Below are positions 10,723 to 16,593 of a stretch of DNA of 64,000 bases, piece by piece; positions within the stretch are counted from its first letter, which is position 1; each line of letters begins with the position of its first letter. The notes under the pieces were generated by a model. It searched no databases and was not told the origin of the DNA. It saw only the letters and a program-made list of their open reading frames with translations. The DNA is taken from NCBI GenBank assembly GCA_013811945.1, contig JACCUI010000284.1, forward strand, positions 10,104-74,103, in the 5' to 3' direction. The stretch is from Pyrinomonadaceae bacterium. GTDB lineage: Bacteria; Acidobacteriota; Blastocatellia; Pyrinomonadales; Pyrinomonadaceae. The position numbers and the translations under genes are program-made.

Positions 10723-12405
10723 CTATTTCTCTGCCGCCGGCACTTGTTGGGCCGGCGTCGTGGTCCGACCAGGAGTCGCCGGAGACTGGGTTGGCGTTGC
10801 TGGCGCCGCCGCTGGGAGCACGCTGTAGTCCGTCAAGCCAGCCGCGATTTTGGCTTCCCAGTCCGTTTGCTTGCGCTGGTTCAAACTATTTGTCGTTTCA
10901 TGGTCGTAAACGACTTGAACCTGGTCCTTGAAAGTTCTCCAATCTTCGCCCAGCTTAATCAAACCCGCTCTGGGCTGTTGGAATAGCTGATGAACGAGGT
11001 CCATTGCCGCGTCGTGCCCACACCCACTCGCGTTAAACGTGAACGTCGCGGCCTTCGCCTTTACGGCATCCCGTGCCTTGCCAGCCATTACTCTGGTGAT
11101 CTCGAAGTGGCCCTGCTCATGTTTCAGAAGCAAAGCCTTCTTCGTGCTCTCGTTAGCAATGCATGTTCTAAGAAAGCTGGTCTTGCAATCCGACTTTCTG
11201 TTTGCGGCGGCGGTCCCGAGTCTGGGCCTGACGTTTGGATTCTGGTCGAAATCACGCTCACATTGAGTGGCCGCGTTGTTGCAGTAGGCGTTGTTCTTGA
11301 GGCGATCCTGCAACCAGGATTTATCCGTCTCCATGTAAGGCTGAAACTCTGTGTCGAACTGAGCGGGGTTAACCGAACCCTTACCGTCGAACTTCGTGTC
11401 AAACTTTCTCCGCCCAGTCGGATTGAGCAGCTTGCACCTTTTCTTAGTATCTTTTGTGCCAGAAGTAAGAACAGGGGTAGGAATCTTGAAGCTGCTCCAC
11501 AGTCCCGCCGACTCCGTAGCGGCCGCCGGGGCTTGCGCCACGAAATCCCCCCATACCAGTTGGTGGTAAGGGAGTTCAGCCCTTTGGATCAGTCTTGAAA
11601 CACTACCGGCACGCTGCTGGGCAACGTGGACCAGTTCGTGCGCTACCAGACCAAACCCCGTAGCGGTATGGGGGCTGAACCGTCCGGCGTTGAAAAAGAT
11701 GTCGGAACCAAGTGTGAATGCTGCCGCCTGAAGACTCTGTGACGTTGATGCGGCTGACCGGTCTGTATGAATTCGAACGTTACTCAAGTCGTGATCAAAG
11801 CTCGGCTCAAAAAAATCACGCAGAGGTGCCGGCAAAGGGCGTCCACTTCCAACCGCGCTTCTAATTCTCGCTTCGGTTTGAGGACTTACCTCTGAGATTT
11901 GAGCGCCGGAAGTGGATCTCGCTTCGGCGCCTTTCCGATTGGCCTGGTGTTCACCGTTTTGAGGTTTAGCGGAAACCGTGGGGCCGGCGGAAACTTTGCT
12001 GGTCACTTTTCCAAGATTGCTCGCGGGCTGTCTTACTACCTCGTGGGCCACTCTGTCAGCCTCCAGTTCGGAATGATCGTCGGGTTGACTGATCAGCAAT
12101 CGAGGCGGAGCGGCTGCAAGCCTGTTCACATTCTCAGTTTGAGGAGGATCAAGTTGACCTCGGTTTGAACCCTTAACTTTGCTGCAAGCGTCACACCCAC
12201 CACCAGTTGAGTGCGGATCACACGCACATCCTCGAAGTGAGGTGGACTGGACCGCTTCAAATGCAGGTCTATAGCTCATCTCGTCTTGCTTCTTGATCAA
12301 TGTGTGATTGCCCGGGCAGCCGTGCGGCCGCAACTTCACTCCGAGCGATACCTGGTTTCCCTTCGCCCTCCGGGGTTTGCTGACTTGTTGGCTTTTCACG
12401 CCCAT
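10723..12405 (-). CDS. DUF4157 (eCIS-associated HExxH) protein 3 with a C-terminal second HExxH module (DUF922-like)
   Basis: 560 aa. Leader MGVKSQQVSK...PGNHTLIKK. Cys motif CACDPHSTGGGCDAC. DUF4157 signature SELEADRVA...LSNVRIHTD...LVAHELVHVAQQ. C-terminal module LVWGDFVAQAP...SWLQ...LLLKHEQGHFEI. Confidence 0.8.
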   Translation of the reverse strand: MGVKSQQVSKPRRAKGNQVSLGVKLRPHGCPGNHTLIKKQDEMSYRPAFEAVQSTSLRGCACDPHSTGGGCDACSKVKGSNRGQLDPPQTENVNRLAAAPPRLLISQPDDHSELEADRVAHEVVRQPASNLGKVTSKVSAGPTVSAKPQNGEHQANRKGAEARSTSGAQISEVSPQTEARIRSAVGSGRPLPAPLRDFFEPSFDHDLSNVRIHTDRSAASTSQSLQAAAFTLGSDIFFNAGRFSPHTATGFGLVAHELVHVAQQRAGSVSRLIQRAELPYHQLVWGDFVAQAPAAATESAGLWSSFKIPTPVLTSGTKDTKKRCKLLNPTGRRKFDTKFDGKGSVNPAQFDTEFQPYMETDKSWLQDRLKNNAYCNNAATQCERDFDQNPNVRPRLGTAAANRKSDCKTSFLRTCIANESTKKALLLKHEQGHFEITRVMAGKARDAVKAKAATFTFNASGCGHDAAMDLVHQLFQQPRAGLIKLGEDWRTFKDQVQVVYDHETTNSLNQRKQTDWEAKIAAGLTDYSVLPAAAPATPTQSPATPGRTTTPAQQVPAAEK

Positions 12406-12423
12406 TACTCTTTGAACTGCTGA

Positions 12424-14307: not shown

Positions 14308-14334
14308 TAGGCTTTCCAGATTTTCAAACTGCAC

Positions 14335-16593
14335 TTAGAAACGTTTACTGAAGAACACGTCAACAAGATGCGTACGCTGCTTATCGCCATCCAGCCGTTT
14401 CCATTCTTCCCACCCGATACCAAGGCGAAGCGAGCGGTTTTTTCCAAAGGCCCATCCTGCTTCCAGGCCCCCGCCCACTTCAATTGACGTAAACCACTCG
14501 CTACGGATTCCTCCCTTACCGGTCAAAAACAATGACATTTCCTTAAAGGGATCAAAACTTGCGCCTACTCCAGCGGAGATGGCGCCTGTTCCAATTCCCG
14601 TATAAACAAAAGGCTGCAACTTGCCATCCAGCAAGGTGGGAAGAAGCTTTCGGAATTCAAGTTCAAGCCCTGGCTTCTTCTCGTCGCCGAGTTCTAGAGT
14701 GAGTTTTGGAAGCAGCTCAAAACGAGGAGAAGGAGCTTGGCTTTCTTTAGGGGCATCATGAGTCGGGATCACCTTGGGGTCATATATCAGTGTAGTTTTC
14801 TCGGTTTCATCCAGCGGCGTATCCGGATCATCCTTCGTCTCCGGCCGCTTCCGGTTCTCCGCTGCGTACTGGAACAGCTTTCTTGCGTAGTCGACCCAAC
14901 CGTCCGCGTCACTGAATGCTCCCATCACCGTATTTCGCGTTTCAAACTTCACGAGGCCAGTGTCCTTTTCGCCCTTTTTGGCCTCCACGTCGTATTTGCC
15001 CATGGCGGCACTGACACCTGAGCCACTCTGCACTGACAGCAAATCCTTACCGCTGTGAATACCTGCCAGCCATTTGTACACGGTGGGACCAGCGTGATGT
15101 TGCTTCATTCCATACCCCTTAATGAAGAATGGGGTTTTTCGATCCAGCCCGAGCTGCTTCAGGATCAGATCTTTTTGTACTATCTTTTTGAAAAGGCTTT
15201 GTTGCTTTTCGGTCATCAGCAGAGTCTGATAGATCGAAGAGAAGTCGGTTCGGTTCATCAGGATAAACGCCTGCTTCGCAGCCTTGCCCTTAACATCGGC
15301 GAATGCTCCAGTGCTGGCGCTTGCCGTCGCGCCCTGCCCTCGCATGATGTAATTGACGATTATTTGTAGAAAGCTGCGCAAATTGACTAATTCCGTTGCG
15401 GGAATGCCTCCACTGTTAGCGGCATCCAGGATCGTCTGAGCGCTGGCGATGACGGGTTCTCTGTATGCCGGAAACTCGTGTTGTTTGAGCAGAGACTCAT
15501 ACTGTTCCAGCAAAATGCCTTCTGAGGATTGAATGCCTGCATTCCATTTGTCATCGACTATTTCGACCTCCAGCTTCTCTTCTTTCCCAAGAATTTTTTC
15601 CTTCCCTCCTTCCATTCCTGGTTTTTTGTCCCAGAAGCCTTTTTTCAGTTCCTGAGGTGAGCCTTTTCTCAGATCATCCACGGGAAACGGGAACGCCTTC
15701 CGTCCTCCCTCGGCAGCCGGTGCCCCATTCATCTTCGTGGTCATTTCACGTGCTTCTTTTAACTGCTTTTCCAGTGCAGACCATTTACGAAACCAGTCCG
15801 TTTCAAATTCGAGCACCCCGTTGGTCTCGGACTCCAATCTCACACCCGTAGCACCTTTGACCAGGAAATCACTGGGACCATACTTCCGATCCAGCAGGGT
15901 CGGAGGGTTTACGCCATCATTTCGCCAAATCTTGTTAAATGTCTGGATCTCAAACTTCATCTCCCGTTGAATCGTCGCTGGCCTGCTATGCGAGGTTGGC
16001 GGAGCAGCAGGAAAGGTGCTGGGACCTTCGTGATTGACGGCGTTTTGATTGAAGGAACGACCCACCGCTTTTGCCCCCATTAGGTCGGCTTCTCGCTCGA
16101 GGCTTCTATCATCATTAATCGACTTCCCCTTTGCCTGAATCGTGGGGGTCACACGCCCCTGCATCTGCTGCACTGCATGCCAGCCCTCGTGAGGTAAATG
16201 CCGTTCCTGACCCGGAGCGAGGTGGATTTCCTGTCCTTCGGTATAGGCCCACGCATTCAGTTGGTCTGGTTTTGAGGAGTTTCTATGAACGCGTATACCC
16301 GAGAGATCCCTTCCCGAGAGCGTTTCCAGGCCGGCCTTCAACTGACGCGGCATCCCGGTACGGTTTTCGACTTCACGCCGATCATCCTGGAGTGGCTGAT
16401 CCATTACATTGCGTTGCAGCGTCGCACCCTTCTCTTTCCTTTGCAGTCGAGGCTGAGTTTCGTCGGTCTCCCGGCCCTTTCTCACTAACGTGTGATTGCC
16501 TGCAAAACCACGCACCGGGGTTAACGCACCCGAAGATATGGGCGAGCGCATCCCGATGGCCGGCTTTGTGACGTGTTGGCTTTTCACGCTCAT
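14335..16593 (-). CDS. DUF4157 protein 1 with a ~400-aa unknown central domain and a C-terminal beta-rich domain
   Basis: 752 aa. ATGA overlap with the upstream 78-aa gene. Leader MSVKSQHVTK...FAGNHTLVRK. DUF4157 core LSGIRVHRNS...HLPHEGWHAVQQ...LEREADLMG. The C-terminus ends in VDVFFSKRF. Confidence 0.8.
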   Translation of the reverse strand: MSVKSQHVTKPAIGMRSPISSGALTPVRGFAGNHTLVRKGRETDETQPRLQRKEKGATLQRNVMDQPLQDDRREVENRTGMPRQLKAGLETLSGRDLSGIRVHRNSSKPDQLNAWAYTEGQEIHLAPGQERHLPHEGWHAVQQMQGRVTPTIQAKGKSINDDRSLEREADLMGAKAVGRSFNQNAVNHEGPSTFPAAPPTSHSRPATIQREMKFEIQTFNKIWRNDGVNPPTLLDRKYGPSDFLVKGATGVRLESETNGVLEFETDWFRKWSALEKQLKEAREMTTKMNGAPAAEGGRKAFPFPVDDLRKGSPQELKKGFWDKKPGMEGGKEKILGKEEKLEVEIVDDKWNAGIQSSEGILLEQYESLLKQHEFPAYREPVIASAQTILDAANSGGIPATELVNLRSFLQIIVNYIMRGQGATASASTGAFADVKGKAAKQAFILMNRTDFSSIYQTLLMTEKQQSLFKKIVQKDLILKQLGLDRKTPFFIKGYGMKQHHAGPTVYKWLAGIHSGKDLLSVQSGSGVSAAMGKYDVEAKKGEKDTGLVKFETRNTVMGAFSDADGWVDYARKLFQYAAENRKRPETKDDPDTPLDETEKTTLIYDPKVIPTHDAPKESQAPSPRFELLPKLTLELGDEKKPGLELEFRKLLPTLLDGKLQPFVYTGIGTGAISAGVGASFDPFKEMSLFLTGKGGIRSEWFTSIEVGGGLEAGWAFGKNRSLRLGIGWEEWKRLDGDKQRTHLVDVFFSKRF

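Follow-up and report, generated by a model that had tools for sequence, protein, structure and literature searches.

Background

In the eCIS (extracellular contractile injection system) of Algoriphagus machipongonensis, AlgoCIS, the lumen of the tube is filled by two proteins, Cgo1 and Cgo2 (PMC8894135). Their loading requires an N-terminal disordered domain and has the AAA+ protein Alg15 as its mediator, while their DUF4157 domain is dispensable for it (bioRxiv 10.64898/2026.05.27.728243). Here we describe three co-oriented genes, P1, P2 and P3, which lie between the AAA+ ATPase gene and the tube-initiator and spike genes of an eCIS operon in a soil acidobacterium (Pyrinomonadaceae, Acidobacteriota). 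The DNA analysed, called the window below, is a stretch of 64,000 nucleotides (nt), and all the relevant genes are on its minus strand. Exact copies of the proteins are present in an assembly of a soil metagenome, and P1 and P2 are listed by NCBI under a Pyrinomonadaceae metagenome-assembled genome. It is probable that the three proteins are payloads of this eCIS, co-transcribed with the machine. The idea of a payload cassette is already in the literature, and the three-gene cassette is one of a known kind. New are the effector modules, above all a confidently modelled barrel of the outer membrane protein (OMP) type on a predicted eCIS cargo, the punctuation of the linkers by a [LIV]QR motif, and a natural variant in which the N-terminal leader occurs without DUF4157.

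P1–P3 resemble Cgo1 and Cgo2 in that several cargo genes are located inside an eCIS cluster that also encodes an AAA+ ATPase, and in that an N-terminal region common within the system is followed by DUF4157 and then by a C-terminal domain (CTD) that differs, one CTD being a predicted metalloprotease. They differ in number (three genes versus two), in phylum and in eCIS lineage, and here they are predicted cargos. Moreover, their leader is unrelated to the one described for Cgo1 and Cgo2, two of the three carry a 4-Cys knuckle, and their set of CTDs includes an OMP-like barrel.

DUF4157 is the eCIS core domain and a marker of eCIS toxins (PMC8213781, PMC11297309). A 2012 study assigned it, by prediction, the role of a peptidase that frees the toxin by autoproteolysis, in a layout of a constant peptidase and a variable toxin (Zhang et al., PMC3482391). 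As in these PVC-metallopeptidase polymorphic toxins and the eCIS DUF4157 toxins, a constant HExxHxxQ module precedes variable CTDs in P1–P3 (PMC3482391, PMC8213781, PMC11297309); multiple copies per locus, the frequent absence of immunity genes and CTDs of peptidase type are further common traits. In contrast, the CTDs of P1–P3 matched none of the named toxin families, and the E-x-EAD element, which is downstream of HExxH in the published signature, is upstream of it in P2 and P3, only P1 having the published order. Polymorphic toxin systems in the sense of Zhang et al. would have a cognate immunity gene right after each toxin gene; no ORF intervenes after P1, P2 or P3, and a HEAT-repeat gene follows the cargo of a sister operon (L088, described below).

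The Tme protein of the contractile injection system (CIS) of Streptomyces davawensis also has DUF4157 near its N-terminus, and its gene immediately precedes the tube-initiator and spike genes, as do P1–P3 (PMC11126660). However, Tme, at 2247 amino acids (aa), shows homology to tape measures and has a nuclease as its CTD, along with predicted transmembrane helices and coiled coils (PMC11126660), whereas P1–P3 have 560–752 aa, and full-length P2 and the P1 CTD are modelled as globular with a beta-barrel. Finally, the payloads Pdp1 and Pnf of the Photorhabdus virulence cassettes carry N-terminal signal peptides and are loaded by Pvc15 (PMC11495950, cited in bioRxiv 10.64898/2026.05.27.728243). 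A disordered N-terminal signal of ~50 aa and ATPase-dependent loading would be common to Pdp1, Pnf and P1–P3, and the cargo of L088, a leader without DUF4157, shows exactly the simpler layout of Pdp1 and Pnf.

Modular architecture of P1, P2 and P3

The original prediction was that three consecutive genes of 752, ~627 and 560 aa, between the eCIS ATPase and the baseplate genes, encode proteins with the order leader, optional 4-Cys knuckle and DUF4157, which become completely different thereafter. The coordinates of the open reading frames (ORFs) confirm the genes, the motifs quoted are present, and all three proteins score above the cutoff (22 bits) of PF13699, the Pfam family DUF4157, now renamed eCIS_core ("eCIS core domain") (Table 1). 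The HExxH motif is intact in each (HEGWHAVQQ in P1, HELTHVVQQ in P2, HELVHVAQQ in P3). The 4-Cys knuckle is common to P2 and P3 only; among 172 DUF4157 ORFs surveyed, from many bacterial and archaeal phyla, it is found in 63.

Two further motifs had been expected in every protein. That of the xVRVH/IH type is altered in P2, which reads VRVY. E-x-EAD is present throughout, but at different positions, upstream of HExxH in P2 and P3 and downstream in P1. The downstream position recurs in the P1 orthologs; among the surveyed proteins, E-x-EAD stands before HExxH in 120 of 172 and after it in 20. As judged from the sequences, this looks like a circular permutation of a putative third-ligand helix within one domain family. 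The element resembles the glutamate helix of the gluzincins, and its order would then be canonical in P1 and permuted in P2 and P3.

AlphaFold2 (AF2) models cover full-length P2 and the P1 CTD. In the P2 model, the folded parts of the N-module are the EAD helix (100-114) and the DUF4157 core (144-231), and the LQRKV strand is reached through a disordered linker (235-253).

Similarity in BLASTP ends with DUF4157. It extends over residues 1-245 of P2 and 1-279 of P3 (E 3e-32), and over 1-146 of P1 and 1-233 of P2 (E 8e-10), and nothing significant is found among the three beyond these limits. Their CTDs retrieve three disjoint sets of homologs, in agreement with the prediction. If P1–P3 were simple tandem paralogs descended from one DUF4157 gene, evenly diverged and not modular, the common PF13699 match and common orientation would be accounted for, but not the loss of similarity after DUF4157 or the three unrelated CTD families, each with its own orthologs elsewhere. 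Homology of the P1 tail to the P2 barrel was considered and rejected (hhalign probability 0.9%). The simple-paralog alternative is therefore refuted, its remaining probability being negligible.

The N-terminal leader

The first ~45 residues are common to P1, P2 and P3, with the pattern M[SG]VKSQ[HQ]V.K ... G[FC][AP]GNHT[LV].[RK]K..E (P1 versus P2, E 2.8e-9; P1 versus P3, E 7e-6). Within the window the leader is confined to these three genes (tblastn). It is hydrophilic in all of them, with no Sec or Tat signal evident. In the model of P2, whose N-terminus is the only one modelled, residues 1-93 (leader and Cys knuckle) are disordered, with a predicted local distance difference test (pLDDT) score <35.

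Public gene calls lose the leader: P1 is started at Met15 (738 aa; 16552-16593 removed), and P3 at an internal Met (442 aa). A loading signal located there would therefore escape signal-based effector predictors.

The GNHT element of the leader is a divergent form of a motif, L.LQR..GNQAVQRLL, that occurs in 23 of 175 proteins and 15 of 84 loci, including Methanosarcina (1.4 +/- 1.2 by chance). The same leader was also used in a metagenome scan, by which the sister operon L088, the most informative of the relatives, was found. Between L088 and the window, the structural proteins share 57-82% identity (ATPase 74%, hub 77%). The slot of L088, between the 78-aa ORF and the tube initiator, is occupied by a single 387-aa protein that has an HENFH motif and no DUF4157, but bears the same leader (E 1e-5 to 5e-4 versus residues 1-47 of P1–P3). 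It follows that the leader goes along with the machine and can be separated from DUF4157, and that the content of the slot is exchangeable. The shared half of P1–P3 thus consists of two separable parts, the ~45-aa leader and the optional DUF4157. The 387-aa cargo of L088 is followed, within 6001-8003, by a 268-aa HEAT-repeat protein, which may be an immunity or adaptor protein.

The cargo slot in related operons

Among 84 DUF4157 loci of many phyla, 47 have at least two DUF4157 ORFs and 28 have at least three, and in 43 such ORFs are adjacent on one strand. To have three modular DUF4157 genes in tandem is therefore the rule rather than an oddity. CTDs within a locus are rarely similar (6 of 142 pairs, 4%). 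N-modules are similar in 77% of the pairs within a locus and in 53% between loci; the EAD helix, being conserved universally, confounds this comparison. Orthologous CTDs are found behind very different N-termini.

Parallels are found in individual operons. In Sulfurirhabdus autotrophica (L002) the same order is found (tube ... cap, ATPase, 87-aa ORF, four DUF4157 genes, tube initiator). The four cargos have a common leader of their own, a knuckle, an EAD module and four different CTDs; one is a 75%-identical ortholog of P2, and three of the four have Gly-rich strand tails. L005 has, beside an AAA ATPase gene, four DUF4157 genes whose N-modules are nearly identical and whose CTDs differ. In L006 the ATPase gene is followed by a P1 ortholog and a second DUF4157 gene, and in a metagenome-assembled genome of Thermoanaerobaculia a P2 ortholog is found after the baseplate and fibre genes. 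The ATPase gene thus precedes the DUF4157 genes in L002 and L006 as well, and the slot of L088 has the same start.

These observations bear on a structural role, in which at least one of the DUF4157 proteins would be a tape-measure-like or spike-tethered lumen protein, comparable to Tme, that builds the particle or sets its length. The slot immediately before the tube initiator and spike is that of S. davawensis Tme, which co-purifies with spike proteins (PMC11126660), and the DUF4157 protein Sle2 of S. lividans, tested for binding to proteins of the spike complex, is in its authors' conclusion a possible link between the effector Sle1 and the core of the baseplate (bioRxiv 10.1101/2025.11.06.686954). 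High conservation of the CTDs and the lack of any match to the Pfam tape-measure family CIS_TMP in the operon point in the same direction. However, between closely syntenic operons the slot varies in copy number and content (3, 4, 2, or 1 without DUF4157), and the P2 ortholog of the Thermoanaerobaculia can occupy the operon's 3' end. Furthermore, full-length P2 and the P1 CTD are modelled as globular, enzyme-like domains and a barrel, and not as long coiled coils with transmembrane helices, and no region of P1–P3 matches a tape-measure family of Pfam. The operon also encodes a possible tape-measure candidate of another kind, a low-complexity, disordered 256-aa protein without family match, between the tube genes and the cap (20225-20995, minus strand). 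A structural role is accordingly considered improbable, with a small but real share of the probability.

The [LIV]QR linker motif

In P1–P3 the tripeptide [LIV]QR occurs in the linkers, at residues 50, 59 and 208 of P1, 66, 128 and 258 of P2, and 273 of P3. One copy is exactly at the junction between N-module and CTD in each protein (IQRE in P1, LQRK in P2, and IQRA, aa 273-276, in P3). In the relatives of the P1 core examined, the junction copy precedes the core, and standalone P1-core proteins begin right after it.

The motif is strongly overrepresented in DUF4157 proteins. The N-modules of 64 collected proteins contain 126 copies versus 13.7 +/- 3.1 in shuffles, and those of the 172 ORFs (84 loci; a set that partly overlaps the 64 proteins) contain 351 versus 39.8 +/- 6.4, i.e., ~9-fold more; since the sequences are related to one another, such shuffle comparisons overstate independence, although the positional pattern is clear. 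In the larger set the density is 0.82 per 100 aa in the N-modules versus 0.10 in the CTDs, and the excess over the proteins' own CTDs is 8-15-fold. Relative to HExxH, the copies are concentrated at -180..-160, -120..-100 and +10..+19. They lie ahead of the knuckle, in the stretch from the EAD helix to the core, and after HExxH, with essentially none inside the core. The residue that follows the Arg is Lys in 28%, which is of note given the resemblance of the P2 CTD to a Lys-specific peptidase. From this distribution in the sequences, the [LIV]QR linkers are likely to be processing sites or hinges, and may be regarded as candidate cleavage sites.

C-terminal modules

The whole CTD of P2 is a conserved unit, which 22 further proteins, from Betaproteobacteria (Sulfurirhabdus, 75% identity), Thermoanaerobaculia, Longimicrobium and Tahibacter, also have behind DUF4157. 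Its first part resembles the aspzincins (M35). Searches of PDB sequences gave weak matches only, to 1g12 and 2x3a (peptidyl-Lys metalloendopeptidase, AsaP1), and several P2 orthologs carry a precomputed match to the Pfam family Aspzincin_M35 (PF14521). Residues H401, E402, H405 and D422 (of FDTAECY) are invariant in 23 sequences; we take the HExxH motif and this Asp to correspond to the aspzincin GTxDxxYG-like motif.

The second part of the P2 CTD is modelled as a barrel of eight antiparallel strands, most of them with one clearly more hydrophobic face. In Foldseek it is matched by NspA (E 1.3e-5, TM 0.72), and also by OprF-N, Ail, OmpA, OmpX and OmpW. The beta-signal of OMPs and mitochondrial barrels has the form polar-x-G-x-x-hydrophobic-x-hydrophobic; the last strand of P2, Q-T-G-L-T-V-V-F, fits this pattern, and its Gly (G619) is invariant in the family. 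The P2 tail is thus like NspA, OmpA-N, OmpX, Ail and OmpW in predicted fold, strand number, alternation of the hydrophobic face and C-terminal strand, but unlike them it has no signal peptide, stands behind two peptidase-type modules and is encoded in the cargo slot of an injection system. A full-text literature search for an OMP-type barrel on an eCIS cargo found no report.

A hidden Markov model (HMM) of the P2 barrel also matches the tail of a second Sulfurirhabdus cargo, which has a different middle domain (E 4e-10). Among the 172 DUF4157 ORFs it matches tails in this eCIS lineage only, so the barrel is not a general feature of DUF4157 proteins. A C-terminal aromatic residue was considered as a trait of DUF4157 proteins at large and rejected, there being no overall enrichment (30 of 172).

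The P1 core, which begins at MKFEIQT, belongs to a large family. A search with the P1 CTD gave 72 relatives, in many of which the ~380-aa core is 50-70% identical, and a profile search of 1.84 billion cluster representatives gave 319 clusters (at 50% identity) at E <=1e-3 and 132 at <=1e-30. The core occurs alone (P0010 begins at MKFEIQT), behind DUF4157, or in proteins with trypsin-like, subtilase (S8), VanY or PG_binding_1 domains. It has many invariant Glu, Arg, Lys and His residues, and it gave no match in Pfam, NCBIfam or PDB sequences (as a single sequence or a profile) and no significant match in Foldseek against the PDB. A glutamine-synthetase-like ligase fold was considered and left as a weak lead only, the top Foldseek match being PafA, the Pup ligase (E 0.013, probability 0.44, TM 0.17). 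Most likely, the core is an enzyme-like, highly conserved effector domain. The low G+C content of the P1 CTD (0.51) was considered as a sign of recent transfer and is accounted for by amino-acid composition (GC3 0.58).

The last ~135 residues of P1 align across its orthologs P0002, P0003, P0005, P0006, P0046 and P0047. A Foldseek search of BFVD with the P1 model gave only small phage OMP-like barrels, weakly; as judged from lengths (~100-130 aligned columns), these matches most likely align to the beta tail.

The CTD of P3 has seven relatives, two of which (P0098 and P0101) carry the Pfam family DUF922 (PF06037). The motif LLxHEQGHFxIxxVMA is invariant in the P3 family. DUF922 is a predicted secreted zinc protease.

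Taken as a set, the two putative zinc peptidases, the OMP-type barrel and the occurrence of VanY and peptidoglycan-binding domains in P1-core relatives suggest that the CTDs may act on a cell envelope or membrane. The envelope concerned could be that of the producer, the peptidase and barrel proteins serving in lysis and particle release or in anchoring and not being injected. The barrel on P2 and the fusion of P1-core relatives to VanY, PG_binding_1, trypsin and subtilase domains would fit such a function, and eCISs are released by lysis, to which a contribution of effectors has been suggested (PMC8213781). However, the N-termini speak against export in the producer, and the hydrophilic, disordered leader of P2, with no Sec signal peptide, indicates that P2 is not a conventional OMP of the producer. 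Moreover, the shared leader next to a loader-type ATPase matches the experimentally defined architecture of cargo, and the same leader is found on the different cargo of L088. A producer-side function is hence thought even less probable than a structural one. Injected effectors remain the preferred interpretation of the three proteins.

Organization of the operon and neighbouring genes

The genes of the operon are arranged in the order sheath, tube, two small genes, cap, ATPase, 78-aa ORF, P1, P2, P3 and tube initiator, followed by a 93-aa ORF, a gpD-like hub, a VgrG-type spike, a 105-aa ORF, gp25 and two baseplate-J-like genes (Table 1). The ATPase is the presumed cargo loader.

Table 1. Coordinates of the operon genes and of the modules of P1–P3 in the window
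Feature	Residues (aa)	Position	Strand	Remarks
Sheath		22341-24764	-	eCIS operon
Tube		21817-22323	-	eCIS operon
Two small genes between tube and cap			-	eCIS operon
Cap, Pvc16_N		18927-20222	-	eCIS operon
AAA+ ATPase, Afp15/Pvc15/Alg15 type		16816-18930	-	N-terminal winged-helix and AAA; Pfam AAA E 6e-29, WHD E 3e-12
Conserved ORF between ATPase and P1	78 in length	16590-16826	-	L088 ORF 57% identical, same place
P1	752 in length	14335-16593	-	Leader, divergent DUF4157 (HEGWH), orphan 380-aa domain, Gly-rich beta tail
P1 leader	1-45	16459-16593	-	MSVKSQHVTKP...RGFAGNHTLVRK; common to P2, P3, L088 cargo
P1 DUF4157/eCIS_core	81-146	16156-16353	-	Pfam E 1.4e-8, 35.2 bits
P1 E-x-EAD helix	166-170	16084-16098	-	~30 residues downstream of HExxH
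P1 orphan effector core (predicted)	211-590	14824-15963	-	From MKFEIQT, directly after IQRE; AF2 pLDDT ~97
P1 C-terminal linker and Gly-rich beta-strand tail	~591-659 and ~660-752	14338-14823	-	Ends in KRF
P2	627 in length from ATG (636 from upstream GTG)	12424-14307	-	Leader, Cys knuckle, EAD helix, DUF4157, aspzincin-like peptidase, 8-stranded barrel
P2 leader	1-45	14173-14307	-	AF2 pLDDT <35
P2 4-Cys knuckle	70-82	14062-14100	-	CACDGSGTDCEKC; LQRK directly before
P2 EAD helix	100-114	13966-14010	-	Upstream of HExxH; helix in AF2 model
P2 DUF4157/eCIS_core	156-233	13609-13842	-	Pfam E 4.5e-30, 104.1 bits
P2 junction LQRK	258-261	13525-13536	-	Before VVDD; xQ[RA][KR]VVDD nearly invariant in 23-member family alignment
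P2 aspzincin (M35)-like metallopeptidase module	262-465	12913-13524	-	HEWSH and FDTAECY
P2 8-stranded OMP-like beta-barrel	466-627	12427-12912	-	AF2 eight antiparallel strands, pLDDT 85-95
P3	560 in length	10723-12405	-	Leader, Cys knuckle, EAD, DUF4157, DUF922-like module, Pro/Thr-rich tail
P3 leader	1-45	12271-12405	-	Absent from public 442-aa gene call
P3 4-Cys knuckle	60-74	12184-12228	-	CACDPHSTGGGCDAC
P3 ELEAD	113-117	12055-12069	-	Upstream of HExxH
P3 DUF4157/eCIS_core	190-267	11605-11838	-	Pfam E 1.5e-28, 99.2 bits
P3 DUF922-like putative zinc peptidase module	278-520	10846-11574	-	LLLKHEQGHFEI
Tube-initiator-like gene		9994-10716	-	Weak Pfam CIS_tube; 68% identical in L088; downstream border of cargo slot
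ORF	93 in length	9706-9987	-	LysM- or gpX-like, judged from sequence
gpD-like hub		8633-9691	-	
VgrG-type spike		8059-8631	-	
ORF between spike and gp25	105 in length		-	PAAR-like, judged from position and size
gp25		7364-7918	-	
Two baseplate-J-like genes		4782-7361 and 2353-4785	-	

Translational coupling of P1–P3 to the structural genes had been proposed, with an ATGA overlap and gaps of 0-18 nt. The overlap exists, but its partner is the 78-aa ORF and not the ATPase: this ORF overlaps the end of the ATPase gene by 11 nt, and its stop overlaps the start of P1 as ATGA. The P2-P3 gap is 18 nt as proposed, whereas that between P1 and P2 is 0 nt only if P2 starts at GTG, and 27 nt with the leader-conserving ATG; P3 is separated from the next gene by 6 nt. 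Sites resembling terminators or promoters are absent from the minus strand between 9900 and 17000.

Counterparts of the 78-aa ORF occupy the same position in L088 (5768-6004, 57% identity) and in Sulfurirhabdus (5620-5883, 87 aa). It has no Pfam match, and phmmer gave only marginal matches outside close relatives. It could be a loading adaptor or chaperone. P1–P3 themselves gave no match in an NCBIfam search.

Two sigma-54-dependent transcriptional activators are encoded in the window (25493-26878 and 58731-60284, both minus strand), one of them directly upstream of the eCIS operon, which suggests that the machine is under sigma-54 control. Two other pairs of genes are unrelated to the eCIS. 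Two tandem paralogous hydrophobic proteins of 607 and 619 aa (53806-55629 and 55696-57555, plus strand), 64.5% identical and without Pfam match, are encoded where the AT skew is strongly negative. A secretin gene of the type II/III or pilus type (48164-49801, minus strand) and a radical-SAM gene (33643-35691, minus strand) are part of a long run of minus-strand genes.

Discussion

The interpretation of P1–P3 as payloads is drawn from the operon context, the modularity, the shared leader, the variable slot, the generality of the arrangement, the [LIV]QR motif and the match with the literature. The division into a shared N-terminal delivery and processing module and different C-terminal effectors, as originally proposed, is supported by the complete eCIS operon, the modelled disorder of the P2 leader, the unrelated CTDs and the variable slot. 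By homology to Cgo1 and Cgo2 of AlgoCIS, P1–P3 would be loaded, processed and toxic.

In the mechanism that we propose, the ~45-residue disordered leader (M-x-VKSQ-x-V-x-K ... G-x-x-GNHT) would be a system-specific loading signal, which the adjacent AAA+ ATPase would recognize in order to thread the largely unfolded protein into the tube lumen. The module that follows, consisting of the optional CxC...CxxC knuckle, the E-x-EAD helix and the HExxHxxQ core, would be a zincin-type accessory, dispensable for loading. It probably acts on the cargo itself, in processing or release, or in docking to the spike/tube-initiator complex, with the flexible linkers punctuated by [LIV]QR as candidate cleavage or hinge sites. 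The predicted effectors would be the 380-aa domain and beta tail of P1, the aspzincin-like metalloendopeptidase and barrel of P2, and the DUF922-like zinc peptidase of P3.

Several points weigh against this interpretation or parts of it. The toxicity of Cgo1 of AlgoCIS is independent of its HExxH motifs (PMC8894135), so that a catalytic role for DUF4157 is unproven. Streptomyces DUF4157 proteins bind proteins of the spike complex, and one of them is tape-measure-related (PMC11126660; bioRxiv 10.1101/2025.11.06.686954), which allows a loading route independent of leader and ATPase. The CTDs are unusually conserved for arms-race toxins, the P2 CTD being 75% identical between the acidobacterium and a betaproteobacterium and the P1 core 50-70% identical in many contigs. 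No immunity-like ORF is found between P1, P2 and P3, whose borders leave gaps of only 6 to 27 nt. Also, the family assignments of the peptidases are below the Pfam cutoffs, with E 2.5e-5 and 24.4-25.2 bits for P2 versus PF14521 (cutoff 30) and E 0.0044 and 17.6 bits for P3 versus PF06037 (cutoff 27), and the six-strand AF2 model of the P1 beta tail is of low confidence.

A more specific proposal, that the P2 barrel is a membrane-targeting device of an injected effector and that DUF4157 cuts off the loading module at [LIV]QR, is speculative and on balance unlikely. An OMP barrel is unfolded in water, which would be convenient for travel through a narrow tube. It would then fold into a membrane with BAM- or SAM-type machinery and anchor the attached metallopeptidase there. 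In a diderm prey cell this could be the outer membrane, entered from its periplasmic side, and in a protist or fungal target it could be the outer membrane of the mitochondria. Membrane targeting may also apply to the beta-rich tails of P1 and of three of the four Sulfurirhabdus cargos, which have a C-terminal Phe at or near the end. If the proposal is true, this would be the first contractile injection system that delivers beta-barrel membrane proteins, and DUF4157 would gain a defined substrate motif.

Conclusion

eCIS particles are being engineered as programmable devices for protein delivery, and the role of DUF4157 is a question of that field. No new principle follows from the locus described here, which nevertheless amounts to a clean experiment of nature. 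The [LIV]QR punctuation provides a concrete candidate for the long-predicted autoprocessing sites, and the effector modules would widen the known payload repertoire towards envelope- and membrane-directed activities. With three cargos that carry one leader, and a sister operon that carries it without DUF4157, the ~45-aa tag may be a portable loading signal for this eCIS lineage.

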